From contig CAWAGQ010000002.1 of assembly GCA_963781585.1 (NCBI GenBank), positions 128,001 through 192,000 on the forward strand: 64,000 nucleotides of DNA, in the 5' to 3' direction. This DNA comes from an uncultured Gemmatimonadaceae bacterium. GTDB lineage: Bacteria; Gemmatimonadota; Gemmatimonadetes; Gemmatimonadales; Gemmatimonadaceae. The notes beneath the pieces are model-generated. The model was not told the DNA's origin, searched no databases, and saw only the letters and a list, made by a program, of their open reading frames with translations. A program made the translations under genes and the position numbers. Numbering within the stretch: the first letter of the stretch is position 1; each line of letters opens with the position of its first letter. Positions 1 to 62,736 of the stretch are shown piece after piece.

Positions 1-1615
1 ATTTCAGCTGGCCGGCGATTCCGAGCGGGTGGCCATTACCTGCGCCGCGCTCGGCGTGCGCGCCGATGAGCTCGAGCTGCCGGTCCCGCTGGATCGCCGG
101 GCCTACCGGCGTGCGCTGGCGTTGCTCGAGGAGCGCGGCATCGTGGCGGACGGGCGCCTCACGCGCTACGGCCGTCTGGTCGAGGCAACGCCGGTGGAGC
201 GCCCCTGGGCGGAGTTGCTCGTACATGCCGACGACGGCCTCCTGCCGTACGTCGCGGTCATGGCGTCGACCGAATCACTGCACCGCATGACCCGTGAGGA
301 CCGCGACCTGAGTGGCCTGGTCATTCCGGGGAGCGATCATCTCACGGCGTACAACGTGTACGCCGACGCGTATGCGCGGTCCGGCTACGTCGGTCAGGTG
401 TACGGCCTCCCGCGGCACCTCTTCGATGAAGGGACGATCGCGCAGTGGGCGGAGCGCCGCGGGGTGCTGGTTCGCGCGATCGAGGATTCGGCGCTCGCCG
501 TGGCCAGCGTATGTCGCGCGCTCGAGGTGGAGCTCCCAGGTACGCTGCCGCGCGCCACCGACGAGGTGCGGCGCGGTTTGTGCGAGCTGGTGGCGCGAGT
601 CATGCCATTTGCGCTGGTGATCGACGAGGAAACGGTCGACGGCCGGGAGGCCCGCGTGTCGAAGAGCAGCGTCTGCGGCTCGTGGGGAGCGATTGCCGGC
701 GACCTGCGCTACTTCGCCGACCGTTTCGGAGTGCCACGCGCGAGCATCGAAGGAACGCAGCTGCCGATGTCCCTCGTGCGGAAACACGCCGTTCGCGAGC
801 CGGCCGAGTTGGCGTTCGACCCGACGGGAAAGAGGGACCGGCTCGTGTTGCGGAGTCGGGTGCGCTATTTCGGCTTCGAGCTCGAGCGGTCGGAGCAGCC
901 GGTGGGGACATTTCCGGCCGACCAGGCGGCGCGGGCCCGCCGCCTTCTGGCGGAGGCGCTGGCCAGTGGGGAAGCACGACATCCGGCCGTACGGAGATAC
1001 CGGCACGTGATCGAGGAGACGCGCGAGCTGTATCGTCGTTCGGGTGGGTCGACGGCACGGCTGGGGTTCGCCGAACTCGCGGCGCTCTACGGGGTGGCGC
1101 TGTCCGGCGTCACGTCCATGGAGGAGTACCGGGCGGCGCCACTGCGACTTCCGCTGGACGACCTGGTGGCCGAGGAGGAGCGCGAGCGGTTGCGCGACCT
1201 TCCGGACGCGGTCGAGTTGCGCGGCAAGTGGATCGGCATCGAATACGATCTTGAGGAGTCCGGCGCGGCGGACCAGGCTGCAGCGCGGCAATCGGCACCC
1301 GGCGCCGGCGATGCCGTGAGCAATGGCGGCCGAATGACTGCCGTCGCGCGTCTGCGGCTGCCGGAGAAGCTCGCTCGCATGCTCACGGCCGACGATCTGC
1401 CGGCGCTGGACCGTCCGCTCCGGTTCGTGGTGACGCGGGGTGCGCGCGGCGCGGTGCGCGCCCCCACGCTGGAGGCGCTTCAGCAGGCACTGGATGCGCC
1501 GTGGTCGCCGGACCGGCCTGTCGTCGCCGGTCCGGCGGGGCGTCCCACACAGCCTCGGCGACAGCGCCCGGCGGCGCGGCCCGGGCCGCACCGCCGCGGG
1601 CGGCCACGTCGTTAG
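1..1615 (+). CDS. HrpA/HrpB-like DEAH-box helicase, C-terminal part (5' end outside window)
   Basis: Frame is open to the window edge (FQLAGDSERV...). HA2-like region 'ALALLEERGIVADGRLTRYGR...PVERPWA' and 'GSDHLTAYNVY'. Confidence 0.7.
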   Translation, partial: FQLAGDSERVAITCAALGVRADELELPVPLDRRAYRRALALLEERGIVADGRLTRYGRLVEATPVERPWAELLVHADDGLLPYVAVMASTESLHRMTREDRDLSGLVIPGSDHLTAYNVYADAYARSGYVGQVYGLPRHLFDEGTIAQWAERRGVLVRAIEDSALAVASVCRALEVELPGTLPRATDEVRRGLCELVARVMPFALVIDEETVDGREARVSKSSVCGSWGAIAGDLRYFADRFGVPRASIEGTQLPMSLVRKHAVREPAELAFDPTGKRDRLVLRSRVRYFGFELERSEQPVGTFPADQAARARRLLAEALASGEARHPAVRRYRHVIEETRELYRRSGGSTARLGFAELAALYGVALSGVTSMEEYRAAPLRLPLDDLVAEEERERLRDLPDAVELRGKWIGIEYDLEESGAADQAAARQSAPGAGDAVSNGGRMTAVARLRLPEKLARMLTADDLPALDRPLRFVVTRGARGAVRAPTLEALQQALDAPWSPDRPVVAGPAGRPTQPRRQRPAARPGPHRRGRPRR

Positions 1616-2127
1616 GCGCCAGGGACCTCGGCGGTGTACGTTTCCGAGCGCCAGGGCCGGAATCCGCGGGCGAGGTAGTTCGGAAGGGCAGCCGGGTGGT
1701 CGAGCGTGCAGGTATGGAGCCAGACGCGTCGCGCTCCCAGCGCCCAGGCTTCCTCCACCGCCCGGGAGAGCAGAAACCTGCCCAATCCGCGGCCGATATG
1801 GGGCTGCGTCAGGCCGAAGTAGGCGATCTCCGCCGAACCGTCCTCGTGGCGCACGAGCTCGAAGTAGCCGGCGGGATCGTGCGCCAGGCGAAGGATCCAG
1901 ATGGCGACCTCGGGCCGCGCCAGGTAGGTCGCGAGCTGCTCGTCTGACCAGTGGTCCCGGTCGTGCCAGTGAAAGGGGCGCCCCACCGACGCGTACAGGG
2001 CCCGGTAGAGCGTGACGTCGCAGAGCGCCTGTTCCAGGACCGCGGACGGCTCGGGTGGCACGGCCCGCCGCAGCTGCTCGGGGCTGTGCATCTCGAGCCA
2101 GGTACGGACCACGGTTACCGCGGGCAT
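1612..2127 (-). CDS. GNAT family N-acetyltransferase
   Basis: Acetyl-CoA motif 'YFGLTQPHIGRGLGRFLL' and 'WLHTCTLDHPAALPNYLARGF'. Confidence 0.9.
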   Translation of the reverse strand: MPAVTVVRTWLEMHSPEQLRRAVPPEPSAVLEQALCDVTLYRALYASVGRPFHWHDRDHWSDEQLATYLARPEVAIWILRLAHDPAGYFELVRHEDGSAEIAYFGLTQPHIGRGLGRFLLSRAVEEAWALGARRVWLHTCTLDHPAALPNYLARGFRPWRSETYTAEVPGA

Positions 2128-2223
2128 GCGACGAGCGGACCGGTCGACGGCTGGTGCCCGTCGTGCCCCGGCAGGTGGATCGTGACGGGCACCGGACCGG
2201 CATGTGCGCCGGTCCGCTGCGCG

Positions 2224-2940
2224 TTAGGCGTCGGGTTCTTCGCCCGGTGACAGCGGCGACGCATTCGCGGCGTGGCGGTCGTCGGCGCGTCCGCGGGCGC
2301 GGAAGCGAGCGGCCTTGGCGCGGTTCCCGCAGGTCGCCATGTCGCACCATCGCCGCCGTCCGTTCCGCGTGGAGTCGTAGAACACCCGCGGACACCGGGG
2401 GTCGGCGCACTGTCGCACCCGTACCAGCTCATTGTGCACCAGGGCCTCGGCGGCCGACTCGACCACCGGGATCATCAGGCCGGCGAACGCATCGCCGACG
2501 GGAACGAAGCTCTGCCGAAACGAACCGTCCGACCGCCACTCCACCCGGCGGGTGCCGGCGCTTCTGCCCAACACGCGGTTGATCTCCAGCAGCGCGTCGG
2601 CGCGGGTGCGCTCCGACGTGGCGCCCCGCTCGGCCAGCGTGCGCAGGGCGGCCCGCACGCGGCGTGCATCGACGAGGGCAGCGGCGGCGCCGGCGGGCTG
2701 CTGGACGGCGCGTCGCGCAATACCGACGGCGCGCTCCGCGTCCAGCACGCGTGTCGTCTCGAGCCACCGCACCAGCGTGTCGAAATCCCGAAGCACATCG
2801 ACTCGCACGCCCCGGCGCGCGTCGTCGGTGTTCACGAAGTCGAGCCAGAGGCGCTCGCCGACGAAGACGAACGGAACCTCCGACGACTCGACGGACAACA
2901 GGGCGTGGCTCACAGGATCGTGGTGCAGGAGAAGCGACAT
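2224..2940 (-). CDS. ABATE / CGNR zinc-finger domain protein
   Basis: 'LWLDFVNT' at the N-terminus and 'CADPRCPRVFYDSTRNGRRRWCDMATCGNRAKAARFR'. ATG at 2940 chosen as start. Confidence 0.9.
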   Translation of the reverse strand: MSLLLHHDPVSHALLSVESSEVPFVFVGERLWLDFVNTDDARRGVRVDVLRDFDTLVRWLETTRVLDAERAVGIARRAVQQPAGAAAALVDARRVRAALRTLAERGATSERTRADALLEINRVLGRSAGTRRVEWRSDGSFRQSFVPVGDAFAGLMIPVVESAAEALVHNELVRVRQCADPRCPRVFYDSTRNGRRRWCDMATCGNRAKAARFRARGRADDRHAANASPLSPGEEPDA

Positions 2941-4974: not shown

Positions 4975-6036
4975 GTGCGGTTTCCTTTTCGCGCCAGACC
5001 GGAGAGGCATTTTCCGGCGCCTTCGGACTTCGGGTACGTGGAAGTGCGCGGTGGCGACAGCCGGGTGGTGTGCATCCCGTCGCTGGCCGGGAAGATCGTG
5101 GAGCTGGAGCTGGCCGGCCGGCAGTGGCTGTGGCACAGCGACAGCATTCCGTTCGCGCCGCCGAAGGAGGGCGCGAGCTACGCCGAGACGGCGGACAGCG
5201 GCGGAATGGACGAGTGCTTTCCGACGGTCAGTGCCTGCCGGATTCCGGGCTGGGTGCGCGCCTGGGGCGGGGTGGAGCTGCCCGATCATGGCGAGCTGTG
5301 GTCGCAGGTGCCGGAGCTCGAGATCGAGACGGGTCCCGATGGACAGGCGATCGTGACCACCTGGGAAGGGCGGCGGATGCCCTACCGCCTAACGCGGGTG
5401 GCGCGGGTGGCCCCCGACGGGTCGGTGGTGATGACCTACCATGCCGTCAACGACGCCACCGATCGGGTGCCGTTCATCTGGGCGGGGCATCCGCTCATTC
5501 CGCTCACACCGCAGACGCAGCTGCTGCTGCCGGAGGGCGCGCCCATGCGGGTGTACGCGGCGCACCGGGTGGTGATGGGAGACGCGCGATCGCTCCACCA
5601 CTGGCCGTTCGTGCGTGCGGCGGGGCGGGTGCTCGATTTCCTCACGCCGTACAACGTGGCGAAGGAGTACGCCTGCAAGCTGTTCGTGGACATGCCCGCG
5701 GGACGGGGGTACGCGAGGGTGCGCGAGGGCAGTGTGGAGCTCGAGGTGACGTTCGACACCCGGGAAGTCGGTCAGTTCGGTCTCTGGATCAACCGGGGGG
5801 GCTGGAGTCCGAACAAGCGACAGCGTCCGAACACCAACCTGGCATTCCAGCCGTGCCTCGGCGCCCCCGACTCGCTGACCGACGCGCTGGGGGACTGGAA
5901 GCGTGCCCAGTGGCTCGATCCCGGACAGGTGCGCACCTGGTCGGTGACCTGGCGGGGTCGCGTGGTGCCGCCAGAGCCCGACGGCGACGGGCTCGGGCCG
6001 CCGGCGACGACCGGGGAGATGCGGGCGCCGGCCTAG
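4975..6036 (+). CDS. Galactose mutarotase / aldose-1-epimerase-like protein
   Basis: 'GGMDECFPTV', 'LPDHGELW', 'FIWAGHP'. Start (GTG 4975) uncertain. Confidence 0.7.
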   Translation: MRFPFRARPERHFPAPSDFGYVEVRGGDSRVVCIPSLAGKIVELELAGRQWLWHSDSIPFAPPKEGASYAETADSGGMDECFPTVSACRIPGWVRAWGGVELPDHGELWSQVPELEIETGPDGQAIVTTWEGRRMPYRLTRVARVAPDGSVVMTYHAVNDATDRVPFIWAGHPLIPLTPQTQLLLPEGAPMRVYAAHRVVMGDARSLHHWPFVRAAGRVLDFLTPYNVAKEYACKLFVDMPAGRGYARVREGSVELEVTFDTREVGQFGLWINRGGWSPNKRQRPNTNLAFQPCLGAPDSLTDALGDWKRAQWLDPGQVRTWSVTWRGRVVPPEPDGDGLGPPATTGEMRAPA

Positions 6037-6068: not shown

Positions 6069-7147
6069 ATGTCGTCGCTGGAACTGCCGCGATCGCGCGC
6101 GGCCGTGGCCACGCTCATCGGGACCGAGGGGAGCTCACCCAAACGCCCGGGGGCGAAGATGTGGGTGGACGCCGATGGGCGGATCCTCGGGTCGGTGACC
6201 ATCGGTGGCTGCGTCGATGCCCGGGTGATCGAGGAATCGGCGCGGGTACTGGCAGCGCGCGTCCCCTCGCTGGTTTCCATGTCGTTAGGCGACGAGGATG
6301 CCTGGGCGCTCGGCATGACCTGCGGCGGCACCGTGGAGGTGCTGGTGGAGCCGGTGGACCCCGCCGATCCCGCCGACCCGGTGACCCGCGCGCTCGATGA
6401 GGCTGGACGGGAGGCCGCCGCCGGCCGCCGTACAGTGGTGGTCGCCCCGCTCGATGGGGCCACCACCCGCCTGGTGATTCGGGAACACGCGCCACGAACC
6501 GGCACGCTGGGAACGCCCGCGCTGGACGACGCGGCCGAGACCGTGGCGCGCGAGCTGCTGGCTGGCGGCGTCCCGGCAGTGCGCAGCGTCACCGTCGAAG
6601 GGCAGGCGCATCGCCTGTACTTCGAGCCTCACGCTCCCCCCATCACGCTGATCGTGTTCGGCGCGACCCACGTGGCGATGCCCCTGGTGGCGATGGCCCG
6701 GGTGATGGGCCTCCGCACGGTAGTGGTGGATGGACGCGAACGGTTCGCGACCCGCGAGCGGTTCCCCGATGCCGACGAGATCATCGTCGGCATGCCATCC
6801 GAGATTGCCGACCGATTGCCGTTAGGCAGCCGGTCGCTGGTGGTGCTGCTGTCACACGACTACAAGTACGACCTGCCGGTGCTGCGAGCCGTGCTGGCGA
6901 GCGAGGCGGCCTACGTGGGGCTGCTGGGCAGCCGCCGTCGCGGGCGCGCGTTGCTCGACTTCCTGGCCGAGGACGGAGTGCCCCCGATCAACTGGCGCGC
7001 GTCCGGGTTCCCGTCGGGCTCGACATCGGCGCTGCCACGGCCGAGGAGATCGCGCTCAGCGTGCTGGCCGAAGCCTACGCCGTACACCGGCAGCGCCCGG
7101 GCGGCGCGATGCGCGATCGCGATCGGGGACGCGCGTCGACCGCGTGA
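6069..7147 (+). CDS. xdhC: XdhC/CoxI family Moco chaperone (frameshift at about 6985)
   Basis: 'GSSPKRPGAKM...GSVTIGGCVD', 'GMTCGG', 'AYVGLLGSRRR'. The conserved end 'RVRVPVGLDIGAATAEEIALS' follows in another frame after the CCCCC run at 6981-6985. Confidence 0.85.
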
Positions 7148-8188: not shown

Positions 8189-9190
8189 ATGACGAATCCC
8201 TACAGTCCCACCCTCATCGCCCACTTCCGCAAGCCGCGGAATCGTGGATCACTGCCCGCGCCAACGATCTCGGAGGAGGGGACCAACCCGCTCTGCGGCG
8301 ATCGCGTGCGGATCGAACTGCTGGTGGAGGGCGGGATAGTCCGCGACGCCCGGTTCACGGCGAATGCGTGCGCGATCTGCGTCGCGTCGGCATCGGTCCT
8401 GACCGATCTGGTCCGGAATGCGCCGCTCGACGAGGTCGAGACGCTCACCGTGGACGACCTGCTCAAGACGCTCAAGGCGACCGTGCCATCGGCACGCCTG
8501 AACTGCGTTCGGCTGCCGCTGACGGTGCTGCACGCCGGGGTCCATCTGCATCGACAACGCTCCGGCGAGGGAGAGGCTGCGCCAACGAGCCGGAGCGCCG
8601 CGGCCGGGATCGTCCTGGCGGCGGGGCTTGCGCGCCGCTTCGGCGCCCAGAAACTCGTTGCCCCGTTCGCCGGATCGACCGTGATCCGTACTACGGTGGA
8701 GCGCTTGCGGGCGGCGCAGATCGACCCCGTGGTCGTGGTGGTGGGGCCCGAAGGCGACGCGATTCGGTCCGCGCTCACCGGGATCGAGGTGTTGTGGGCG
8801 GTGAATCCGGACCCGGGCCGCGGCATGTCGTCGTCGCTCGGCGCGGGGGTCGCTGCGCTGCCCCCGCATGTGGGGGCCGCGTTTGTCGCACTGGGCGATC
8901 AGCCGATGGTTGACCGGTTGGTGCTGGACCAGCTGATGGAGGGGTGGTGGAACGGCGAGCGTCCGATCGTGGCGCCGCGTTATCGGGGTCGCCGCGGCAA
9001 CCCGGTGTTGTTCGATCGATCGCTGTTCGCCGATCTGCAGGCGCTCGAGGGGGACCGCGGTGCACGCGACTACATCGACGCGAACCGGGAGCGGTTGCAG
9101 GTCGTGGATGTGGATGACGCGATGCCGCTCGACGTGGACACGCCGGCCGACTACGATACGCTGCTGCGCGAGCAGCGCCCACCGCGTTAG
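8189..9190 (+). CDS. Fusion of an IscU/SufU-like scaffold domain and a MocA/MobA-like nucleotidyltransferase
   Basis: N-terminus 'HFRKPRNRG...NPLCGD...ACAICVASAS...RLNC'. C-terminus 'IVLAAGLARRFGAQKL', 'GMSSSL', 'LGDQP', 'GNPVLF', 'GDRGAR', 'DVDTPADY'. Confidence 0.85.
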   Translation: MTNPYSPTLIAHFRKPRNRGSLPAPTISEEGTNPLCGDRVRIELLVEGGIVRDARFTANACAICVASASVLTDLVRNAPLDEVETLTVDDLLKTLKATVPSARLNCVRLPLTVLHAGVHLHRQRSGEGEAAPTSRSAAAGIVLAAGLARRFGAQKLVAPFAGSTVIRTTVERLRAAQIDPVVVVVGPEGDAIRSALTGIEVLWAVNPDPGRGMSSSLGAGVAALPPHVGAAFVALGDQPMVDRLVLDQLMEGWWNGERPIVAPRYRGRRGNPVLFDRSLFADLQALEGDRGARDYIDANRERLQVVDVDDAMPLDVDTPADYDTLLREQRPPR

Positions 9191-9227
9191 GCAGCGTCGG
9201 GCCTGCGGTCCGGCGCTGCCTAACGCG
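9183..9227. terminator. 18-bp inverted repeat (probable bidirectional terminator) built from two CGTTAGGC octamers
   Basis: CGCGTTAGGCAGCGTCGG-N9-CCGGCGCTGCCTAACGCG (17/18 complementary) between convergent genes. Confidence 0.7.
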
Positions 9228-12282: not shown

Positions 12283-15987
<3,705 letters not shown>

Positions 15988-15995
15988 TGGCGGGA

Positions 15996-16080
15996 TAGGC
16001 CATGGTCATAGGCCATAGGCAGCCATAGGCCATAGGTCATAGGTCATACAGGCCAAAGGCCAGAGGCCATAGGCCATAGG
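15996..16080. repeat. Heptamer tandem array (GG[C/T]CATA-type) between imuB and dnaE2
   Basis: Repeated ggccata/ggtcata/ggccaaa/ggccaga units. Confidence 0.9.
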
Positions 16081-16093: not shown

Positions 16094-18202
16094 TCAGTCG
16101 TACCAACCCTGCACATACCAGCCACCTTCCGCGGCTGCGCCATCGCGAAAGAGCACGAGATCGCCTTCTCCCTCTGCTTCCTCGCACCGCCAGTAGTCGC
16201 GCGCATATCCGTCCTTCCACCAATCGCCCGACAGGCGCTCGGGTCCGACGGTGCGCTCGATGCGCACCCGTCGCCCTCGCCACCAGAGCACGCGCGGCGC
16301 ACCGTCTTCGCACTCGACCTCCACGGACTCGGGAGGCTCGAGTTGGCGGAGTGCCCGGGTGAGGGGTGGCAGAGAGCCGGCGCCGGGCGACGGGTTTGCG
16401 CTTCGACCCACGCCGTCGCTCTCCACGATCCGCGGGTGTCGCGACACGCCGGGTTCCCCGTCGCTTCTCGTACCGCGGCGTGGTTCCCGGTGCGGCTGGT
16501 CTCTGCCTGGCATCGGGGGTTCATCGTCCGGCGTTTCCAGTCCCACCCATGCGCCTGCGCGTTCCGGCCGGTGCTCGTCACGCACCACGGGGAAGACCAC
16601 CGCGTCGGGGCCGAGTTCCGCACGCAGGCGCGCGAAGGCGGCATCGGCGGCCGCCGGGTCGCGCCATGAGGGGTCGAGCAGGTCGCCCTGTTCGCCGGTG
16701 AGTGGCGCGGTGGCGGTGATGGCCACGGTCACACCGCACACCGGCGCCGAGAGCGTCCAGCGGTCGAGGAGGGCGCGGCATCGTTCGAGCAGCGGCACCG
16801 ACCGTGCGAGCGGGCGGGCGAGGCGCATTTCGCGCGTGATCGTGTGGGCCGGTGCGTCGGGGAGAGCGCTGCGCGGGTCGTCGAGCGTGAGGGTGATCGC
16901 CACCGTCGCGGCGGCCCGTCCATCGGCAACGAGCTCACGCACCAGCCGGTCGAGGGCGGCCCGGACCAGGAAGAGCACGGGTTGCATCGCGGACACGCTC
17001 GGGGCGAGGTCGGCCGAGGCGGATCGTGGCGCATCGGCGCGGGCCAGCAGCGGACGGCGGTGGTCCTCGCCGCGCGCCAGGCGCCAGGCGGCGAGACCGG
17101 CGTTTCCCCAGCGTCGCTCGACGTCTTCTGCGGAGAAGGCGGCGAACGCACCGGCGGTACGGATGCCTAACGCCTTGAGCGTCTCTCGCAGTTCCTCGTC
17201 CATGGGGACGAGTCCGAGCGGGACATTGGCCAGGTAGGCGGCGCACCGGCCGGGGGGGACGATGACGATCGGGTCGGGCGTCCGGGATCGGGAATCCGGA
17301 GGGAGGCCGGAAGCGCGCGCCGGAGGCCGGAGGGGAGGCGGGGGCGTTTCCGGTGCGCGGGGGGTGGTTCCGGCTTCCGGTCTCCGTCCCGCCAGTTCCC
17401 AGGTGCCGGCGCGCGCCGCGACACACGAGTCGGCGATGGCCACGCGGGCGCGCGGGTGCCAGCGGCGCGCGCGATGCAGCAGGGCGCTGCCAGCGCGCGT
17501 TCGCCGCCTAACGCTTCGAGTCCGGCGGCGCCGACCCACCAGAGTCCCGGCGCACCGGCGACCGGAGTGACCTGGGGGCTGGCGGCGAGGAAGGCGGCGG
17601 TGGCGCGCCGGACTTCGTCGGCGATGGTGGTGGCGTCCCACGGGAGCACGGCGAGCGCGGCGCATCGCGCCCGTGCTTCGGTGGTGGTCATGCCGGCGCG
17701 GACCCGGTGGTGCGCGGCGGCGGCGGTGACTGCACAGAGCCGTGGCCCTCGGCGAGGGCGATGGGGAGATCATCCCAGTGTGGCGATGGAACGATGGGAG
17801 ACGCGTTGGAATGGTGACGCGCCGCGGTGGTGGAAGCGGTATGCTGAATAGCGGGGGGGGGCCCAGTGGCCGTCCGTTACCGCCCGGTTTCCCCAGCGAG
17901 GAGGAATCCGTCGCGGCCGACGACCGGCTCGGCACACCGGCGCTTGCGGGGGAGCGAGAAGCCGGTGTCCCGGGATCGCAGTCCGACATCGGACTGGCCG
18001 ACGGGTTCGCTCCGTCCTGCCGTTTCCGGCTGCTGGACGGCGCCGCCTTCCGGTCGTCTGTCTCCAGCTCGAGCGCCAACTGGCCGCCTGGCGCCAGGAA
18101 CGTCGGGAGCGGCGCGTTCCCCCCGGCGATTGCGTGGTGCCACACCGCGCCGATCGGGAACCTCGGAATACGCACACAGGCGATGCGTCCTGTCGATCGC
18201 AC
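16094..18202 (-). CDS. imuB: ImuB, inactive Y-family polymerase-like protein (2-3 frameshifts between about 17480 and 17800)
   Basis: N-terminus 'RIACVRIPRFPIGAVW', 'HWDDLPIAL', 'VRAGMTTTEARARC', 'LKALGIRT', 'DEHRPERA', C-terminus 'GPERLSGDWW...RDYW...WYVQGWYD'. Directly upstream of dnaE2. Confidence 0.85.
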   Translation of the reverse strand: MRSTGRIACVRIPRFPIGAVWHHAIAGGNAPLPTFLAPGGQLALELETDDRKAAPSSSRKRQDGANPSASPMSDCDPGTPASRSPASAGVPSRSSAATDSSSLGKPGGNGRPLGPPPLFSIPLPPPRRVTIPTRLPSFHRHTGMISPSPSPRATALCSHRRRRAPPGPRRHDHHRSTGAMRRARRAPVGRHHHRRRSPARHRRLPRRQPPGHSGRRCAGTLVGRRRRTRSVRRRTRAGSALLHRARRWHPRARVAIADSCVAARAGTWELAGRRPEAGTTPRAPETPPPPLRPPARASGLPPDSRSRTPDPIVIVPPGRCAAYLANVPLGLVPMDEELRETLKALGIRTAGAFAAFSAEDVERRWGNAGLAAWRLARGEDHRRPLLARADAPRSASADLAPSVSAMQPVLFLVRAALDRLVRELVADGRAAATVAITLTLDDPRSALPDAPAHTITREMRLARPLARSVPLLERCRALLDRWTLSAPVCGVTVAITATAPLTGEQGDLLDPSWRDPAAADAAFARLRAELGPDAVVFPVVRDEHRPERAGAWVGLETPDDEPPMPGRDQPHREPRRGTRSDGEPGVSRHPRIVESDGVGRSANPSPGAGSLPPLTRALRQLEPPESVEVECEDGAPRVLWWRGRRVRIERTVGPERLSGDWWKDGYARDYWRCEEAEGEGDLVLFRDGAAAEGGWYVQGWYD

Positions 18203-19028: not shown

Positions 19029-19042
19029 TCCGACGCGAACGC

Positions 19043-20263
19043 CTAACGCGTGACATCGGCCGGCCCGAAATGGAGCTCGCCCTGCATCCCTGCCTCGGTC
19101 GCCGCAGAGGCGCGCGGCGCTCCAACGCGCCCGCCGCCTCCAGGTGCCCGCCCGCCGGGCACGATCGCCGTGGCCCGGAATGCCAGCGGCTCCTCCGCAC
19201 CCTCCTTCTCCACCCCGTAGCGGATGCCAGCCTCCCGGCACTGCCGGCGCAGAAAGCGCCGCAGCCCATCCCGATACCGGTCGCTCATCTGATGGCTCTC
19301 CGCGTACGCGGCCCGATACCGGGCGGCCAGATCGGGAAACTCCGCTTCGATGAACGGGAGATAGCGATGCCGCGCCGTGGCCTGCAGCCGGAGCGCGCAG
19401 GCGCTGACGTGGGAGGCGCCCGCACCGGCCACGCGCCTGACGAGCTCGCGCAACATCCCGGGCCGGTCGGTCAGTCCGGGCAGCACCGGCATGATGTTCA
19501 CCCCCGTATCGATGCCGGCGGCCGACAGGCGCGCCACGGCCCGGAGCCGCGCCTCCGGCGTCGGCGCCCGCGGTTCGATGCGGCGGGCCAGCTCGCGATC
19601 GAGCGTGATGAGCGACACGTGCACGGTGAGCGCCGACCGCGCCACGAGCGCCGTCAGGATGTCGATGTCGCGCGTAATGAGCGGACTCTTGGTGACGATC
19701 CCCACCGAGAGTCCGCGCTCCGCCGCCAGGACCTCGAGGATCGCGCGAGTGACGCGAAAGGTCCGTTCCGCCGGTTGATAAGGATCGGTCGCCGTGCCGA
19801 TCGCGATTCGCTCTCCGGTGGTCAATCGGGTGAGACGATCGGCGAACGCGCGCCGGCTCCGCGAATGGCGCGCAGCATCCCGGGCGCGCAACTGCATGCG
19901 CAACACCTCGGCTGCGTTCCGCTTGACGAAGATCCGCCGCTCGAATGCCAGCCACGGCGGCAATTCGGTGAGTTCTTCGGCAACCGTTGCGGCTGGCGCA
20001 GTCGCCACCGTGCGCTCGGCGGCATACCGGTGCGCATAGCGCGCATAACAGTAGGCGCACCCGAACGCGCAGCCCACGTAGGGGTTGATCGACCAGAATT
20101 CCATTCCGGTCGATTCCGGCGGGTTGAGCACCCCCTTCGCCACTGTGTCGTAGTAGCGAATGTCCTTGCGGGTGCCGATCAGGCCCGGGATCGGACGATG
20201 CCGGCCGGCATCGTCAGCCTGGCTCACGGGAAAGAGGGAAGGGCTCACCAGGTTGTGGCTCAT
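19043..20263 (-). CDS. Radical SAM protein, SplB/Rv2578c-like
   Basis: 'SINPYVGCAFGCAYCYAR' CxxxCxxC, 'GTATDPYQPAE', 'IVTKSPLITRDID', 'IEPRAPTPEARL'. Confidence 0.92.
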   Translation of the reverse strand: MSHNLVSPSLFPVSQADDAGRHRPIPGLIGTRKDIRYYDTVAKGVLNPPESTGMEFWSINPYVGCAFGCAYCYARYAHRYAAERTVATAPAATVAEELTELPPWLAFERRIFVKRNAAEVLRMQLRARDAARHSRSRRAFADRLTRLTTGERIAIGTATDPYQPAERTFRVTRAILEVLAAERGLSVGIVTKSPLITRDIDILTALVARSALTVHVSLITLDRELARRIEPRAPTPEARLRAVARLSAAGIDTGVNIMPVLPGLTDRPGMLRELVRRVAGAGASHVSACALRLQATARHRYLPFIEAEFPDLAARYRAAYAESHQMSDRYRDGLRRFLRRQCREAGIRYGVEKEGAEEPLAFRATAIVPGGRAPGGGGRVGAPRASAATEAGMQGELHFGPADVTR

Positions 20264-21873: not shown

Positions 21874-21989
21874 CAGCGCAGCGGACCGGTCTCTCCCGGC
21901 GTATCTTTGGACGACCGCGATGCCGGGAAGGGCCGCGGCTCGCCTGCCTAACGCTGTGTCGTCTCCGCCACGCCTTGCCGGAATCCGCG

Positions 21990-40916: not shown

Positions 40917-40982
40917 GCGGCGGGCCGCCCCGCCAGCGGGGCATGAGCCGATAGCCGAATGCTGATGGCTGTTCGCTGTTCC

Positions 40983-44081: not shown

Positions 44082-46016
44082 ATGACCGACACTCCGCACG
44101 GACACGCCACCGAAAAGGAAGCTCGCGATGTCGCCGAAGCGGCGCGCGAGACCGAGTGGCAGCATCCGAGTTTCGTCCGTGAGCTCTTCCTTGGGCGCTT
44201 CCGGCTCGACCTGGTTCATCCGCATCCCGAGCGCCACGATCCCGACGAAGAGGCGCGGGCTGCGGAGTTCATGGTCCGGCTGCGCGAGTTCCTGGAGCGC
44301 GTCGATTCCGAAGAGATCGACCGCACGGGCGAGATTCCGGAATCGCTGGTACAGGAGCTGCGCGACATGGGCGCGTTCGGGATCAAGATCCCGCGCGAGT
44401 ACGGCGGTCTCGGTCTCTCGCAGATGACGTACATCCGCGCCATGGAGCTGGTCACGTCGAAGGACGGCAGCCTCACGGCCCTGCTGTCGGCGAGTCAGTC
44501 GATCGGCGTTCCGCAACCGCTCAAGCTGTTCGGGTCGGAGGAGCAGAAGCGGAAGTTCTTCCCGCGGCTGGCACAGGGGGCGATCAGCGCGTTCGCGCTC
44601 ACCGAAGTGAACGCGGGTTCCGATCCCGCCAACATGGCGACCACAGCGACGCCGGTGGACGGCGGACGGTTCTTCGTCCTCAACGGCGAGAAGCTCTGGT
44701 GCACCAACGGCACGCGCGCCGAGCTGTTTGTGGTCATGGCGCGCACGCCGGACCGGGAGACGCCCGACGGGAAGAAGCGCAAGCAGATCACCGCGTTCAT
44801 CGTCGACGCGGCGATGCCGGGAGTGGAAGTCGCTCACCGATGCCGATTCATGGGACTCAAGGCGATCGAGAACGGGCTGATCCGGTTCCGCGACGTGAAA
44901 GTGCCGGCCGAGAACATTCTGTGGGGCGAGGGAAAGGGGTTGAAGCTGGCACTGATCACGCTGAACACGGGGCGGCTGACGCTGCCGGCGGGGTCGGCGG
45001 GGGTGGCGAAGGCGATGCTACGGATCTGCCGCGACTGGGCCAACGAGCGGGTGCAGTGGGGCCAGCCGATCGGGAAGCACGATGCGATCGCGCAGAAGAT
45101 CGGGCACATGGCAGCGGATGCATTCGCGATGGAGGCGGTGGCCGAGTTGTCGACGGCGCTGTACGAGCAGGGCGGGTACGACATCCGGCTCGAGGCGGCG
45201 GTGGCCAAGATGTGGAACACGGAGATGGGATGGCGGATCGTCGATGACACGGTGCAGGTGCGCGGCGGGCGCGGATACGAGACGGCCGATTCCCTCCGCG
45301 GGCGCGGCGAAAAGCCGATTCCGGTGGAGCGGGCGATGCGGGACTACCGCATCAACCTGATCTTCGAGGGCTCGTCCGAGATCATGCGGCTGTTCATTGC
45401 CCGCGAGGCGGTGGACAAGCACTTCGCGATGGCGTTCCCGATCGTGAGCCCGGATTCCACCATGTCGCAGCGCCTGTCGGCGTTAGGCAGATCGCTGCCG
45501 TTCTATGCGGCGTGGTATCCGGCGCGGTGGCTGTCGGTGCTGCGGCCGCGGACCTACGGCGAGTTCGGCCGGCTGGCAAGGCACCTGCGGTTCGCCGATC
45601 GCGCCACCAACCATCTCGGGCGGGCGCTCTTCCATGCGATGATCCGGTTCGGTCCGAAGCTGGAGCGACGCCAGATGGTCCTGTTCCGGGCAGTGGACAT
45701 CGGCGCCGAGTTGTACGCGATTGCCGCGTCATGTGTCCGGGCGCAGATGCTCGCGAAGCGCGGGCAGCGCGAGGCAGTGCGGCTGGCCGACGTCTTCTGC
45801 CGCGAGGCGCGGGAGCGCATCCGCAAGCGCTTCGGCGAACTGTACGGCAGGAACGACGTGACGGTGTACCGCCTGGCGCAGGAGGTCCTGCGTGGCGAGC
45901 ATGCCTGGCTGGAGCAGGGGATCGTGGGGATGACGCCGGACGCGCCGGCGCCCGCGGCCTCGCGTGAACCGGCCGTGTCGCGCGCGGAGCGGGAGCCGGC
46001 GGGCGTGGGGGACTAG
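44082..46016 (+). CDS. Acyl-CoA dehydrogenase
   Basis: 'IPREYGGLGL', 'AFALTEVNAGSDP', 'LNGEKLWCTNG', 'VRGGRGY', 'IFEGSSEI'. Confidence 0.95.
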   Translation: MTDTPHGHATEKEARDVAEAARETEWQHPSFVRELFLGRFRLDLVHPHPERHDPDEEARAAEFMVRLREFLERVDSEEIDRTGEIPESLVQELRDMGAFGIKIPREYGGLGLSQMTYIRAMELVTSKDGSLTALLSASQSIGVPQPLKLFGSEEQKRKFFPRLAQGAISAFALTEVNAGSDPANMATTATPVDGGRFFVLNGEKLWCTNGTRAELFVVMARTPDRETPDGKKRKQITAFIVDAAMPGVEVAHRCRFMGLKAIENGLIRFRDVKVPAENILWGEGKGLKLALITLNTGRLTLPAGSAGVAKAMLRICRDWANERVQWGQPIGKHDAIAQKIGHMAADAFAMEAVAELSTALYEQGGYDIRLEAAVAKMWNTEMGWRIVDDTVQVRGGRGYETADSLRGRGEKPIPVERAMRDYRINLIFEGSSEIMRLFIAREAVDKHFAMAFPIVSPDSTMSQRLSALGRSLPFYAAWYPARWLSVLRPRTYGEFGRLARHLRFADRATNHLGRALFHAMIRFGPKLERRQMVLFRAVDIGAELYAIAASCVRAQMLAKRGQREAVRLADVFCREARERIRKRFGELYGRNDVTVYRLAQEVLRGEHAWLEQGIVGMTPDAPAPAASREPAVSRAEREPAGVGD

Positions 46017-47731: not shown

Positions 47732-50286
47732 ATGCGCTTTCTTCCGATCGTTCTCGCGATCAGTCTCGCTGGCGTCGGCCCGGTGGCCGCGCAGCAACTC
47801 GTCAGGCATCCAGCCACCGCTCCGGGCGCTCCGGCGGTTGCGATCGCGCGCGCGGTGAAGGCGCCGGACCCGATCGTCGTCGACGGCACGGACAGTGATC
47901 CCGTCTGGGGGGACGCGCCGGTGGTGGACGGCTTCCGCGTGTTCGATCCGGTGGAGGACGCCAATCCCACGATGCGGACCACCGCCCGGTTCGCCTACGA
48001 TGCGCACAATCTGTACGTCCTGGTGCGGGCGTTCGATCCGCACCCGGACAGCATCATGGCCCTTCTCTCGCGGCGGGATGAGCGCACCCAGTCCGACTAC
48101 ATCCGGGTGATCGTGGACTCATACCACGACAAGCGCACCGGCTACGAGTTCATGGTCAACCCGGCGGGCGTGAAGCGCGACCTCTACCTGTACAACGACA
48201 CCCAGGAAGACGTGTCGTGGGACGCCGTCTGGGACGTGAAGACGACGATCGATTCGTTAGGCTGGGTGGCCGAGTTCCGGATCCCGCTGAGCCAGCTGCG
48301 CTATCCCCGTGAGGACACCCACACCTTCGGTGTGGCGGTGCACCGTGAGGTAGGGCGGCTCAACGAGCGATCCAGCTGGCCCCTCTGGCGCCGGTCGCTG
48401 TTCGGCATCGCCTCGCAGCTGGGCGAGGTGGAGGGGCTGACGGGCATCGCCGCCCCGCGCCGACTCGAGGTGCTGCCCTATTCCGTGCAGACCAACGAGA
48501 GCGTGGTGCGGAACCAGTCGTTCGGACGAACGCAGCGCGGCACGGTGGGCGCCGACGTGAAGTACGGCCTGTCGTCGAACCTGACGCTCGACGCCGCCAT
48601 CAACCCCGATTTCGGCCAGATCGAAGCCGACCCGTCGGTACTCAACCTCTCGGCGTTCGAGCAGGTCTACGAGGAGAAGCGCCCGTTCTTTCTCGAGGGC
48701 ACGGGCATCTTCCGGTTCGACCAGGACTGTAATGACGGGAACTGCACCGGACTGTTCTACTCGCGCCGCATCGGTCGCGCGCCGCAGCTCCCGGGCCTGA
48801 GCGCCGATCCGAACGCGGTGCCCACGGCGACGACCATTGCCGGAGCCACCAAACTCACGGGCCGATTCGCCAACGGCCTGTCGGTCGGTATCCTCGATGC
48901 CGTTACCCTGCGGGAGTCGGTGGGCGACACGCTGACCGTCGAGCCCCGGACAAACTATCTGGTGGCGCGGTTCAATCAGGATCTGCGCCAGGGGAAGAGC
49001 GGCATCGGCGCGATTCTCACGGCGGTGAACCGGGATCTCGACCCGCAGAGCCGGCCGTACCTGCGCCGCGAGGCGTACACCGGCGGCATCGACCTGCGCC
49101 ATCGCTTCGCGCGGGGCGGGAACTACCAGTTCAGCGGCAACGTGGTCGGAAGCCTGGTGCGCGGATCGGCGGGCGCGATCGCCGTCACCCAGCGCAGCTC
49201 GGTGCACTTCTACCAGCGTCCCGACGACGATCTGCGCTACGACACCACCCGCACCAGTCTCTCCGGGTACGGCGTCAGTGCCGGGCTGAACAAGGTGGGC
49301 GGCGGCATCACGCGCTTCTACACCGGCGGCTGGTATCGCTCGGCGGGGCTCGAGGTGAACGACGCGGGTTTCATGACGTCGGTCAACAACATGGGATGGT
49401 CGAACTGGTTTGCCTTCGTGTTTCAGAAGCCGAAATCGATCTACCGCAGTCTGCAGATCAATTTCAATCAATGGAACAACTTTCTTCCGGACGGCAGGAC
49501 CACCGGCATCGGCGGCAACGTGAACGCCAACGCGACGCTCAAGAACATGTGGTTCGTGTACGGCGGCATCGGCGGGTCGCGGGCGGCGTACTGTGCCTCG
49601 TGCCTGCGCGGCGGTCCGCTGCTGCGCACCACGCCGCAGCTCAACAGCTGGTTCGGCTTCTCGGGCGACTCGCGGCATGCACTGGTGCCGGGCATCGATG
49701 GCGGATACAACCGCGGCGACAACGGCCGGTCCTTCTCGTTTTCCTTCGCGCCGTACGTGAACGCCAGGATCGCCAGCCGGTTCTCGACCACCATCGGCGT
49801 GTCGTACAACAGGAACGTGAGCGACCGGCAATGGCTGGGGAACTTCGGGGACATCGGGAGCGATACCACGCACTACACGGTGGCGCATCTGTCGCAGAAG
49901 ACGCTCTCGATGACCACTCGGCTGAATTTCACCGTCAGCCCCGTGCTGTCGTTCCAGTTCTACGGACAGCCGTTCGTGTCGTCGGGCACCTACTCGGACT
50001 GGCGCGAGGTCACGAATCCGCGGGCGACGCGCTATGGCGACGCGTTCGTACCGTTCACGCAGGAGGGCGATCCCGGTGCCTTCAACTTCAAGCAGTTCCG
50101 CTCGAATACGGTGATCCGCTGGGAGTATCGGCCCGGTTCAACGCTCTTTCTGGTCTGGCAGCAGGGGCGCGAGCAGAGCGACCTCGACCTCGGCGAATTC
50201 AGCGCCCTGCACGATTACCGGCACCTCTTCGGGGCCCATCCGCGGAACACGTTCCTGATCAAGGCGAGTTACTGGTTGTCCTTGTA

Positions 50287-50287: not shown

Positions 50288-50398
<111 letters not shown>

Positions 50399-57304: not shown

Positions 57305-57343
57305 CAGGTCAAAGGCCAGAAGTCAAAGGCCAGAGGTCATAGG
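57305..57343. repeat. Heptamer array directly after tRNA-Ala
   Basis: ggtcaaa ggccaga agtcaaa ggccaga ggtcata. Confidence 0.8.
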
Positions 57344-57485: not shown

Positions 57486-58772
57486 CTATTGCCGCCCCAC
57501 ATCCGCCCGTAGCGCCGCGAAGAGCCGCGCCAGGTAGCTGTTCTCCTCCGCTTCCACGCGCCCGCTGAAGTCACTGAACGCCGACGCGCCCAGGCGACCG
57601 ATCCAGCGCATGATTGCGCTCTCGTTCACGACCAGGTGGAGCGCGCGGAAGCTGAGGGTCTGCGGCGGGATGTCGTCGCGGACGCCCAGCCGGAGCTCGA
57701 TGCCGCGGCCCTGGAACGGGCGGCGGAGCGGCGAGTGAATGAGCTTGTCCACGGCCAGCGGGAAGTGCCACGCCGGTTCGCGTCGGAACCGGAACATCCA
57801 CGCGCGCAGGTGCTCGCCGCGCTCGATGGTGAAGTCGGCCACGAGGTCGGTGTAGCCGATGCGGTAGAAGCTGTGCTTGAGCGAGATGTCGCTCTCGAGG
57901 AGGAGTGAATCGGGCAGCGGGCGGGCGGGATCATCGAGGGCGACGAGGGTCCCGGCGCGGGCGCGGAGCCGGACGACGGCGTGGCCGTTGCGGCCAGTCA
58001 GGTCGAAGTAGCGCGCCCCTGCGTGATCGGTGACGGTGAACCGGTAGACGGTCGGGACGGCGTATTTGTCGAGGTACGCGGCGAAGGCCGGGAGGGAGGT
58101 GCGGATACTGTCGGGACGGATCGCGATGCCTAACGTGAGCGCGGTGGAGCCGTCGGTGGCCACGACGGTGCGCAGCGAGTCGATGGCGAAGAGGCGTGAC
58201 AGGTAGCGCGCGGTACTGGGGAATGCGGCCACGGCGCCAGCCCGCGCCTGGTCACTGGACATGCCCGCGGCGCCGGTGAAGGTGGCGGCGATGGCCGCCG
58301 CGATGGCGCCGGCGGTCGCGTGGCCGATGGCATGATCGATCGTGGTGTTCCACTCGTAATCGTTGTGCCCCAGCGATCGAAGCTGGAGGAAGTGCCGCTG
58401 CTCACCGAGCTCCGATGGGTAGGGGGCGTTGGTGCCATTGGAGAACCGGTACCGGCCATTGTCGCGCGTGCCACGCAGGTACATCGCGCGCGAGCTGTCG
58501 GCGGTGGAGACGATCGGCCAGATGGCGGTGTCGGAGTAGAGGTGCGAGGGGATGAGCGCCTCGCGCGCCATCTCGATTCGGGCGCTATCGAAATGCGGTT
58601 CGCGCTCGGCGTCGGTGAAGCGGTACTGAAATGCGGCGAATGTGTCGCCCGCGTTCGTGCGCGCGGACTCGGGGGTCGAGCCGAACGCGTCGATGGTGGC
58701 GCGGCAGGCGGATGAGGCCGCGACTGCGGCGAGGAAGGCGAGGTGGAGAGAAAGGGCGGGCCTGCGGCGCAA
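57486..58772 (-). CDS. Hypothetical lipoprotein
   Basis: Long ORF with coding-like composition. TTG start gives a lipobox-like signal 'AASSAC'. Confidence 0.65.
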   Translation of the reverse strand: MRRRPALSLHLAFLAAVAASSACRATIDAFGSTPESARTNAGDTFAAFQYRFTDAEREPHFDSARIEMAREALIPSHLYSDTAIWPIVSTADSSRAMYLRGTRDNGRYRFSNGTNAPYPSELGEQRHFLQLRSLGHNDYEWNTTIDHAIGHATAGAIAAAIAATFTGAAGMSSDQARAGAVAAFPSTARYLSRLFAIDSLRTVVATDGSTALTLGIAIRPDSIRTSLPAFAAYLDKYAVPTVYRFTVTDHAGARYFDLTGRNGHAVVRLRARAGTLVALDDPARPLPDSLLLESDISLKHSFYRIGYTDLVADFTIERGEHLRAWMFRFRREPAWHFPLAVDKLIHSPLRRPFQGRGIELRLGVRDDIPPQTLSFRALHLVVNESAIMRWIGRLGASAFSDFSGRVEAEENSYLARLFAALRADVGRQ

Positions 58773-59520: not shown

Positions 59521-59782
59521 CCATGTGGACCCGGCTCAGGGTACGGGGGCGAGTCAGCGTACGGTCCTGAATCGCACTGCCTAACGGCCAGCAGCGAGCG
59601 ACGGCGCGTCACCCCGGCGCGTCCGGCAGGCGCGTGGCCGCGACCCGGCTCGCATCAGGGAGTGACAGCACGGTCGCCGACGCGATGCCTGTAGAGTACT
59701 GGCCGGCCCGGTTCCGAGGGAGCGCCAGGAAAGATGATACCGCCTTCATCCCGGGCACGCGAAACGGCGCGCCCGACTTCCA

Positions 59783-60593: not shown

Positions 60594-61376
60594 TCAGCGA
60601 ATCAGTACGCGCGCGCCCACCGGGACGTGCTCAAAGAGCCAGACGAGATCGTCCTCGCCCAGGCGAATGCAGCCGTGCGTGCTTGCCCGCCCGATGCTCA
60701 TTTCGTTCGACGTGCCGTGAATCATGTACCCCTCGCCGAGATCGAGCGCGAAGCGTCCGAGGTCTCCGGCGATCTGGCGATTCACCGTCCCCATCGGCGG
60801 GATGAACAGCGTGCCATCGAAGACGATGTGTTCATCCACGGGGAGCTCCGCGAAGTCCTGGCCCGGGAAAACGATCCCGACCGCGTTGCGTCGTATCACG
60901 AGCCGAGCGCCGCCGCGCAGGGTCGTTCCGCGTGCGCCGAGCCGGGCGAGCCGCAGTCCATGGTTCCGTGCCGTCTCGGCGTAGTGCCAGTCAGGAGGCG
61001 TCCACACGGGGTCAGTAACCTTCCGCAACACCCGCCGCTCGCCACGCGGCGTGCGGAACTCCCACCGGTGTCCGGCATAGACGAATGCAAATCCACTGGC
61101 CACTCCGACCGGCGCTCGGAAAACGGTATCCTCCCCCTGGAGCACCGACAACGTCCGGTCGGCCAGTGAAACGATCAGCCGCATCGACGCCGCGCTGCTG
61201 GTGTCGCGGAGGCGCAATCTCCCACCGAGGCGAGGATTCAGGGTGTGCGAATCGACGGGAACGGCCGTGGCCGGCAGGCGCTCCGGCTGCTGCGCCCGCA
61301 CGCCGGCGGGACGCGCCAACAGGCCGGAGACCAGTACGCCGGCCACGACCAGGATGCCAGGACGAATCATCGGCAT
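60594..61376 (-). CDS. L,D-transpeptidase family protein
   Basis: 'DPVWTPP', 'YMIHGT...SIGRASTHGCIRL'. Confidence 0.92.
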   Translation of the reverse strand: MPMIRPGILVVAGVLVSGLLARPAGVRAQQPERLPATAVPVDSHTLNPRLGGRLRLRDTSSAASMRLIVSLADRTLSVLQGEDTVFRAPVGVASGFAFVYAGHRWEFRTPRGERRVLRKVTDPVWTPPDWHYAETARNHGLRLARLGARGTTLRGGARLVIRRNAVGIVFPGQDFAELPVDEHIVFDGTLFIPPMGTVNRQIAGDLGRFALDLGEGYMIHGTSNEMSIGRASTHGCIRLGEDDLVWLFEHVPVGARVLIR

Positions 61377-61797
61377 TCGCCGCCCGGAACATCAGCGTCT
61401 TCGCCGCGCGCCCCTGACTTCCTCGTGATCGGGCCCCCAACGCGACGAAGACGATCTGATGCCTAACGTGAATGAGCAACTGCTACCGCAGCGTGATGCC
61501 CGCGATCAATGGAACCCAACGAAGATCGCGGCTGCCGTTCGACGCGTCCACCAGGCTCTTCTCGGCGAACACGTTCGTGACCGCCGAAACGCGCTCCCCT
61601 TCCGATTCTCATCCGGGCCTGATCAGTGAGCTGGACGAGGTCTTCGGCTGGCGGGCCGCCACGCGGGCGGCGCATGCGCCGCGACACCGCATTCGACTAG
61701 CTTGCACATCGTGGTCGAGCGACGCCGCCGGCCGCACGATCCGGGTGCCAGGCACCGGACCGTGACGGTGGCGACCAGCATTCAACCGGAGCCTGCA

Positions 61798-62736
61798 ATG
61801 ACCGGTACCGTCCGCATCCTCGTGCTCCTCGGCATTGTCGTCGGATTCGCTGGTCCACTTCCACTGCGCGCGCAGACACCGTACCCCACGCGGTGCGGGG
61901 CGGGAATTCCGCGCAGCGAGCAGTCGGGCTACGTCCCGCTTCCTCGAGGCGACGTCTTCTGTCCGCTCGTCGCCGATCCCAAGGCATCGACCTCGTTCGC
62001 GAGCTATCTGCACGAACACTCCGATGCGACCACGCCCGACACCTCGATCAACATCGCGTCGGTGGGCATCGGCGATTCGTTCGGACTCGGCCGCTGGAAC
62101 GGCGCCCATCCCGGCGACGGCGTGCAGATTGCGCTGTCGGGCAGCGTCTTCGCGCAGTTCGACCTCAAGAGCGCATCGTACGACCTGCTCAACGCCGATT
62201 ACGTGATCGGGATTCCGGTGACGATCCGGCGCGGCTGGTTTTCGACGCGCATTCGCGTCTATCACCAGAGCTCGCATCTTGGCGACGAATACCTCCTGCG
62301 CGAACCGGCAGATCGACAGGATCGGGTGAATCTCTCCTTCGAGTCGCTGGAATGGATCCTGTCGGCTGATGCCGCGGCGCTGCGGCTGTACGGTGGAGGC
62401 GAGTACCTGTTCCGCCGGTTCCCCAAGGATCTGGAATCCTACGTGGCCCACGGCGGCGCGGAACTGCGGCCGCAATTCCGCATCATCCCGCTCGGCTCGT
62501 TAGGCGGATTCCGCCTGGTGGCGGCCACCGACCTCAAGGCGTCGCAGGAACACGACTGGAAACCGAGCGTGAGCGCGCGGGCGGGGCTGGAGTACGATCG
62601 CGCCGGCCGCGTCGATGCGCCGGGGCGGCGGTGGGGCCTGTTCTTCGAGTACTACAGAGGCCCGTCGCCGTACGGGCAGTTCTACCGCACCGACGTCCGG
62701 CACATGGGGTTGGGGATCCACTTCGGACCGACGTGA
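61798..62736 (+). CDS. DUF1207 family exported protein
   Basis: Signal peptide, 'DLLNADY', 'YHQSSHLGDEY', 'YYRGPSPYGQFY'. Confidence 0.85.
   Translation: MTGTVRILVLLGIVVGFAGPLPLRAQTPYPTRCGAGIPRSEQSGYVPLPRGDVFCPLVADPKASTSFASYLHEHSDATTPDTSINIASVGIGDSFGLGRWNGAHPGDGVQIALSGSVFAQFDLKSASYDLLNADYVIGIPVTIRRGWFSTRIRVYHQSSHLGDEYLLREPADRQDRVNLSFESLEWILSADAAALRLYGGGEYLFRRFPKDLESYVAHGGAELRPQFRIIPLGSLGGFRLVAATDLKASQEHDWKPSVSARAGLEYDRAGRVDAPGRRWGLFFEYYRGPSPYGQFYRTDVRHMGLGIHFGPT

Follow-up and report, generated by a model that had tools for sequence, protein, structure and literature searches.

We analysed a window of 64,000 nt of DNA from an uncultured Gemmatimonadaceae bacterium (contig CAWAGQ010000002.1, positions 128,001 to 192,000), and the element in question is a single octamer, CGTTAGGC (reverse complement GCCTAACG). 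The word occurs 24 times in the window, with 12 copies on each strand, in and between genes of diverse function. A sequence-only reading of the window had listed these copies, and all 24 coordinates and strands were exact; the near-matches that it gave at 40981, 43272 and 58790 are each copies with one mismatch. The same word is abundant in part of the related genomes and on the plasmids of a cultured strain, and we conclude that it is a genome-wide DNA word of a subset of the Gemmatimonadaceae, soil members among them, in which it recurs about once per 1-3 kb. As a genome word it is undescribed within the literature that was searched, where some listings were scanned only, and a search by raw sequence found no use of it as a genome signal among the papers listed. 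The 24 copies lie as follows.

1610..1617, plus strand: its TAG is the stop codon of open reading frame (ORF) 2-1615 (+)
2222..2229, plus strand: the complementary TAA is the stop codon of a CGNR/ABATE regulator gene, 2224-2940 (-)
5387..5394, minus strand: antisense to gene 4975-6036 (+), read as Arg-Leu-Thr (CTA ACG)
6283..6290, plus strand: sense TTA-GGC (Leu-Gly) in an XdhC-family gene
6820..6827, plus strand: sense Leu-Gly in an XdhC-family gene
9185..9192, plus strand: supplies the TAG stop of the NifU_N/MobA-like gene 8189-9190 and forms the left arm of a hairpin
9218..9225, minus strand: intergenic, between convergent genes; right arm of the hairpin
12609..12616, plus strand: antisense to dnaE2 (-), read as Pro-Asn (CCT AAC)
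13639..13646, minus strand: sense Leu-Gly in dnaE2
15225..15232, minus strand: Leu-Gly in the dnaE2 N-terminal reading frame 14043-16040 (-)
17165..17172, minus strand: Leu-Gly in an imuB-like ORF; also TAG in the neighbouring frame
17506..17513, minus strand: Leu-Gly in the locally best coding frame, ORF 17167-17691 (-)
19041..19048, minus strand: its TAG is the stop codon of a radical-SAM gene, 19043-20263 (-)
20888..20895, plus strand: sense Leu-Gly in an amidase gene
21946..21953, minus strand: intergenic
29227..29234, minus strand: sense Leu-Gly in an SNF2 helicase gene; the sole copy between 22 and 40.7 kb
40771..40778, plus strand: sense Leu-Gly in a DtxR-family regulator gene
42001..42008, plus strand: antisense to an SPFH gene (-), read as Pro-Asn
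45481..45488, plus strand: sense Leu-Gly in an acyl-CoA dehydrogenase gene
48255..48262, plus strand: sense Leu-Gly in a DUF5916 gene
58128..58135, minus strand: sense Leu-Gly in gene 57486-58772 (-)
59579..59586, minus strand: intergenic
61461..61468, minus strand: intergenic
62498..62505, plus strand: sense Leu-Gly in a DUF1207 gene

Thirteen copies are TTA-GGC pairs, 11 of them by our own gene calls and those at 15225 and 17506 in the locally best coding frame. The copies at 5387, 12609 and 42001 use other frames (Arg-Leu-Thr, Ala-Pro-Asn and Gln-Pro-Asn, respectively), four supply stop codons (1610, 2222, 9185 and 19041) and four are intergenic (9218, 21946, 59579 and 61461), a division that agrees in every class with the sequence-only reading. 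By our gene calls, CG-TTA-GGC holds 11 of the 16 TTA codons of the window. Apart from the purine at +9, found after 21 of the 24 copies as had been counted earlier, the flanks are uninformative. The tetramers TTAG and CTAA, which had been described as rare elsewhere, number 41 in total, 24 of these within the word. The octamer is sharply bounded, since it encloses 24 of the 25 GTTAGGC and 24 of the 26 CGTTAGG in the window.

The over-representation held against each of three null models. One hundred dinucleotide shuffles of the window gave a mean of 1.08 copies (maximum 4), and the order-3 Markov expectation is 1.16. When synonymous codons were shuffled within genes, 0.39 copies were expected (maximum 3 in 300 shuffles) as compared with the 14 coding, non-stop copies observed, which bears out the proposal that the word is maintained at the level of DNA and not of protein. 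Relative to composition the word is enriched about 20-fold, and relative to the codon-preserving null about 36-fold. The same synonymous shuffle in seven related loci yielded 0.16-0.66 expected copies against 6-19 observed. The enrichment is not confined to the window, as it recurs in loci from related metagenome-assembled genomes (MAGs) and on plasmid 1 of Gemmatirosa kalamazoonensis, nor does the word occur only as TTA-GGC pairs, as it is found in four codon frames, in stop codons and in intergenic DNA. DtxR/IdeR iron boxes were considered as a source and set aside. These boxes contain GTTAGGC and differ from CGTTAGGC in being long palindromes, with G and not C before the core, present in few copies per genome.

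The distribution of the word within the family is patchy. IspH of the window (3690-4955) has best matches from 96% down to about 68% identity, named Gemmatimonadaceae bacterium wherever they are named. Our related set consisted of 80 Gemmatimonadaceae or Gemmatimonadota MAG loci among the matches listed, with 62-71% IspH identity and 2-21 kb each. The word is absent from 56 of these loci and present in 1-3 copies in 11; the remaining 13 have 4-24 copies (0.24-1.31 per kb), a distribution in line with the lineage-specificity that had been suggested. After tandem clusters were removed, CGTTAGGC was the only dispersed high-scoring 8-mer in any listed locus. On a quick IspH tree, whose deep branches have weak support, the rich genomes fall into at least three groups.

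Rich group 1: the window, L016, L079, L037, L042 and L017
Rich group 2: L049, L040, L029 and L057
Rich group 3: L007 and L009

Sister loci such as L025, L068 and L045 have 0 copies in 11-21 kb. Dialects of the word were sought among the top 8-mers of the other loci, and these turned out to come from inverted pairs of short tandem arrays whose units are 7-8 nt long. In L008, five dispersed copies of CGTTATGC stand next to six of CGTTAGGC and may represent a variant word. The window itself has tandem arrays of the 7-nt units AGGCCAA, AGGCCAG or AGGTCAT at 13069-13157, 14274-14329, 15995-16080, 18927-19028, 50288-50361 and 57308-57343, and similar arrays with lineage-specific units, often in inverted pairs, are seen in related MAGs (AGGACGC in L062, GTGAGTCA in L045, CCTCGGT in L004, CAGGTAG in L050 and CAGCTAC in L077).

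Where orthologous loci could be aligned, the sites proved to be conserved, as the sequence-only reading had proposed to check. Of 22 alignable L029 sites, 17 are intact in L049, as compared with 26% of all 8-mers at 83% nucleotide identity (p ~8e-7), and the reverse comparison gave 17 of 20. Another clade retained 5 of 7 sites against 21% of 8-mers. Control sites, in which CG and GGC flank a different Leu codon, were kept in 6/11 to 6/16. The sites are not common to different clades. Alleles without the word are same-length substitutions, for example CGTTGGGC, CGTCAGGC, CGCTGGGC and CACTCGGC, and copies therefore arise and decay in place. These comparisons indicate that CGTTAGGC copies originate by point changes at their present positions and are then kept.

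The cultured carrier is G. kalamazoonensis KBS708, whose plasmid 1 (NZ_CP007129.1, 1,106,233 bp) allowed the word to be followed over an entire replicon. Plasmid 1 holds 778 copies (404 plus, 374 minus; 0.70 per kb) against an order-3 expectation of 39, itself inflated by the word; the total includes about 33 copies twice over, owing to a tandem duplication of 52.6 kb that was found by self-BLAST and is also reported in PMC3974934. Two 50-kb samples of plasmid 2 contain 0.40 and 0.60 copies per kb. With the origin at about 1.025 Mb and the terminus at about 0.34 Mb, both placed from cumulative GC skew only, the leading strand carries 411 of the 778 copies (52.8%, p=0.12), with shares of 57% and 51% in the two arms. 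Together with the 12:12 split in the window, this agrees with the earlier claim of a strand-balanced word that, unlike Chi and the KOPS octamers, shows no replichore polarity. The logo of the 778 copies has no signal in the flanks except codon periodicity and the avoidance of T at +9. Spacing is more even than chance: the coefficient of variation of the gaps is 0.88, as compared with 0.996 ± 0.035 at random placement, and gaps of 100-400 nt number 82 where 138 are expected. Motif deserts were considered as possible islands, and the largest gap (10.9 kb) lies within random expectation. Self-BLAST of plasmid 1 revealed no multi-copy insertion sequence (IS) elements. The enriched one-base variants are CGTTGGGC (151), CGTCAGGC (132) and TGTTAGGC (77); at position 1, T (TGTTAGGC) exceeds A (21) and G (16). 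At about 1,005,369-1,005,429 the word is repeated in frame, in short tandem runs with a spacing of 12 nt.

The word leaves a clear imprint on codons and gene ends. In our gene set for plasmid 1, which comprises 935 genes by our own calls, 535 of the 778 copies (69%) lie inside genes as codons, about 90 (12%) serve as stop codons and 153 (20%) fall between genes. The coding copies divide into 309 sense Leu-Gly, 181 antisense Pro-Asn, 24 Val-Arg and 21 Leu-Thr, and the stop-codon copies into 47-55 TAA and 43-45 TAG. Within the word fall 309 of the 396 TTA codons and 55 of the 104 TAA stops, most TTA codons and about half of the TAA stops of the plasmid, and the word thus distorts the usage of codons and stop codons. 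The share of peptide sites that are occupied depends on the frame: 309 of 1269 [SPTA]LG sites (24%), 181 of 327 PN[VADEG] sites (55%) and only 3-4% of the Val-Arg and Leu-Thr sites. Codon rarity alone does not explain the asymmetry between Leu-Gly and Leu-Thr. Density is 0.85-1.16 per kb between genes as compared with 0.65 within them, with a sharp peak at the stop codon and the following 40 nt. About 100 of the 935 genes terminate in the word, and at 1-9 nt past the stops GCCTAACG outnumbers CGTTAGGC by 32 to 8. In-frame back-up stops behind the real stop were ruled out, as no frame is preferred. The same frame pattern was repeated over 187 copies in the window and MAGs, with close relatives counted separately, and in nine independent genomes. 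Rare codons (TTA-GGC, CCT-AAC) and stop codons are the means by which CGTTAGGC is forced into genes, and its density is higher in the DNA between them.

Paired copies in terminators, which had been expected from the neisserial case, are rare. The window has one hairpin (9183-9227), a perfect 21-bp structure with the word in both arms and convergent genes on either side (-26.1 kcal/mol, z -7.8); no T run follows it. Among the 778 copies on plasmid 1, close inverted pairs amount to three in the order GCCTAACG...CGTTAGGC and zero in the order CGTTAGGC...GCCTAACG.

Several other features of the window were seen in passing. The gene at 8189-9190 (+) is a single ORF in which NifU_N and MobA-like nucleotidyltransferase domains are fused. 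The gene of the error-prone polymerase, dnaE2 at 12283-16040 (-), is read in two frames, 12283-15108 and 14043-16040, with the heptamer array 14274-14329 at the frame change, and imuB, 16094-17691 (-), is apparently split over two frames as well. These frame breaks could reflect slipped-strand switching, decay or assembly error. Genes of a defence-type pair occupy 27388-32996 (-) and encode a DpdE/DrmD-like SNF2 helicase together with an Eco57I/MmeI-type restriction-methyltransferase of type IIG.

A further property of the word came from plasmid 1. Between about 818,000 and 857,800 lies a large sedentary integron with 72 attC repeats of about 97 nt, spaced 340-894 bp apart, each after small co-oriented ORFs. 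An integron integrase gene, intI, adjoins the array at 856,827-857,786 (-) (TIGR02249, 423 bits, cut-off 265) and is co-oriented with the cassettes. The attC sites were located by pattern-based detection, and the repeats fold as expected, with an end stem, internal bulges and a variable loop. When the attC sequence was searched in other plasmids, matches were found only in two Gemmatirosa plasmids. The cassettes encode, among others, a Doc toxin and a YaiI/YqxD protein, and one attC-like site lies on plasmid 2 near 384,963. Integrons are known in the Gemmatimonadota according to the sections of PMC8618304 drawn on here.

In the definition taken from an excerpt of PMC3053210, attC is bounded by an inverse core RYYYAAC and a core GTTRRRY, and the GTTAGGC / GCCTAAC within our word fits both. 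The chance that an arbitrary 8-mer contains some GTTRRRY is about 0.4% by our own estimate. The position-wise consensus of the 72 attC end boxes is GCCTAACG for R'' and CGTTAGGC for R', and the exact word is the commonest form of either box (22/72 for R'', 21/72 for R'). In a member of the family, CGTTAGGC is thus the consensus core box of attC plus one stem base. The sequence-only reading saw a genome signal, which stands, and overlooked that the word contains the integron core site and equals the attC end-box consensus.

The dispersed copies are nevertheless not attC sites. On plasmid 1, 45 of the 778 copies lie in the array region and 733 (~94%) outside it. A partner box is rare: for 730 non-array copies, 29 occurrences of CGTTRRRY lie 60-150 nt downstream, as compared with 14 in the upstream control, and no L box appears in the flank logo of the 778 copies. 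The dispersed copies are strict at positions 5-8 and tolerate T at position 1, whereas the attC end boxes are invariant at positions 1-4 and variable at 5-8. The cassette bodies, which are strain-specific DNA, are nearly empty of the word, with 2 copies in 25 kb against 17.2 expected (P ~5e-6). The two look like end boxes that were missed, and none of the 14 [SPTA]LG sites in the bodies is occupied. From the empty bodies it would seem that the array escapes the process at work on shared genes. They also make an integron box that determined the identity of the word more likely than a word that determined the box.

Then, what process could keep such a word? We tentatively favour, at somewhat less than even confidence and by analogy with known systems, the view that CGTTAGGC is an uptake-signal-like word maintained by drive, and that its specificity is linked to that of the integron core site. 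At some step of DNA import or processing, sequence-specific binding of DNA would give an advantage to fragments with the word, and homologous replacement would then spread new copies through shared genes and not through strain-specific DNA, in a process like that which builds the uptake signal sequences of the Neisseriaceae and Pasteurellaceae. The reader of the word and the integron would share one specificity, so that the cassette ends would bear the label too; a DNA reader that prefers the integron core would also prefer cassettes. Import-biased drive is favoured because the word is abundant and strand-balanced, shows no polarity, is evenly spaced, has been absorbed into genes with a trace in the proteome, is in excess at gene ends, is conserved, has a patchy distribution and is absent from strain-specific DNA, and also because of a comparable case, the hyperabundant cyanobacterial octamer HIP1, which was recently proposed as an uptake signal in the available part of PMC13756078. 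The uptake idea of the sequence-only reading is thereby retained as the best fit to the population-genetic pattern, with the rarity of terminator pairing against it and with uptake as a function that the analogy would predict.

Like the DNA uptake sequence (DUS) and the uptake signal sequence (USS), CGTTAGGC is a short, non-palindromic and hyperabundant word at about 1 per kb, equally frequent on both strands, absorbed in genes, where it leaves its mark on the proteome, denser in intergenic DNA, retained at orthologous sites, present in part of a family only and scarce in accessory DNA. It differs from them in having only 8 bp, no conserved flanks, almost no inverted terminator pairs and no dialects among the loci seen, and in belonging to a phylum for which the literature searched gave no transformation system. 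Several points weigh against the proposal of an uptake-type drive. The inverted terminator pairs that are frequent in neisserial DUS are nearly absent; the same 8-mer occurs in at least three separate groups of the IspH tree without clear dialects; and a plain uptake model leaves the identity of the word with the integron core box unexplained. The depletion in cassette bodies can also be read as selection against internal integrase sites. A literature search, in one listing by scanning only, found no competence, uptake bias or receptor for the phylum. In addition, the loci of close relatives are not independent, and genes were called with a home-made program that scores codon log-odds and had Pfam-supported genes as its training set.

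The main rival is that the copies are solo integron core sites read by the integrase or a paralogue, as attG-like docking sites, binding decoys or raw material for attC and cassettes, followed by architectural binding, methylation with short-patch repair and a Chi-like role, in that order. We consider the integrase explanation unlikely, although it accounts directly for the fit of the word to GTTRRRY / RYYYAAC, for its identity with the R''/R' consensus beside a bona fide intI on the same replicon, for the avoidance of internal copies in cassette bodies and for the gene ends, where the roughly one hundred genes that terminate in the word and the 32:8 excess of GCCTAACG just past stops resemble cassettes; integration into the genome at attG sites is reported in the portion of PMC12614218 consulted. 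Against this, most copies on the plasmid are codons in conserved genes (535 of 778), where integration would be harmful, and the copies outside the array have the core motif without the hairpin, partner box or L box of the 72 array sites and do not stand in an array beside intI. The tolerance profiles of dispersed copies and attC boxes differ, no known integrase reaction makes core sites by substitution, and no integrase or attC array was seen in the window or the 80 related loci. An extended form, in which an integron integrase or a relative reads the thousands of solo core sites, the whole genome serves as an integron-type substrate, the GCCTAACG gene ends are proto-attC sites and the dispersed copies are docking sites, appears improbable to us; if true, it would bear on the origin of gene cassettes, an outstanding question in the field according to PMC8618304 as excerpted.

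A site for an abundant chromosome-structuring or DNA-tracking protein that needs no polarity would suit the strand-balanced, fairly even and conserved sites on two megaplasmids and in the window. We regard it as quite unlikely, in that absence from close relatives such as L025, L068 and L045 would be odd for a core architectural system, and the integron identity and the empty cassette bodies would be left unexplained. It also seems improbable that the word is recognised by a cytosine methyltransferase whose action is coupled with short-patch mismatch repair and turns near-matches into matches. Methyltransferase-coupled repair has reportedly been suggested for HIP1. The sharp 8-mer speaks for such a process, and TGTTAGGC as the commonest position-1 variant fits C-to-T decay at a methylated CpG; the word is non-palindromic, however, and an enrichment of this size would be unexpected, as would the empty cassette bodies. 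The single-molecule real-time (SMRT) methylome of KBS708 contains three N6-methyladenine (m6A) motifs, RGATCY, ATGCAC and CCAGN7TCA, each more than 99% modified, and does not address cytosine modification, 5-methylcytosine being poorly detected by that method (PMC3974934). CGTTAGGC is missing from this list, and the m6A version of the methylation-driven motif that had been put forward is contradicted for G. kalamazoonensis, a result that bears on m6A only. HIP1 (GCGATCGC) is likewise a hyperabundant, conserved octamer with quasi-regular spacing and a recent link to transformation (PMC5861425 and PMC13756078, in the parts available), but it is palindromic and methylated by DmtA and DmtC, whereas CGTTAGGC is non-palindromic and not reported as methylated. 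We consider it very improbable that the word is a recombination hotspot of the Chi type or results from a preference for certain codons or peptides. Chi and KOPS are over-represented, non-palindromic octamers too, and Leu-Gly is a common dipeptide, but those octamers are polarised with replication and the 52.8% leading-strand share gives no such skew; the synonymous shuffle abolishes the enrichment, and the four frames, stop codons and intergenic DNA that carry the word speak against a codon origin. The enrichment of CGTTAGGC is far above the level typical of Chi. Repetitive extragenic palindromes and miniature inverted-repeat transposable elements are longer units found mainly between genes, and the word has no conserved flanks and 69% of its plasmid copies in genes.

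In practical terms, the word offers an inexpensive marker by which these genomes can be binned and foreign DNA in them recognised. Hyperabundant words of the uptake type are established in few lineages. If the uptake-signal-like reading is true, it would add a genetically little-studied soil phylum that has a cultivable strain, and CGTTAGGC would be, to our knowledge, the first such word to coincide with the integron core site, linking two systems of gene acquisition that have been studied separately.

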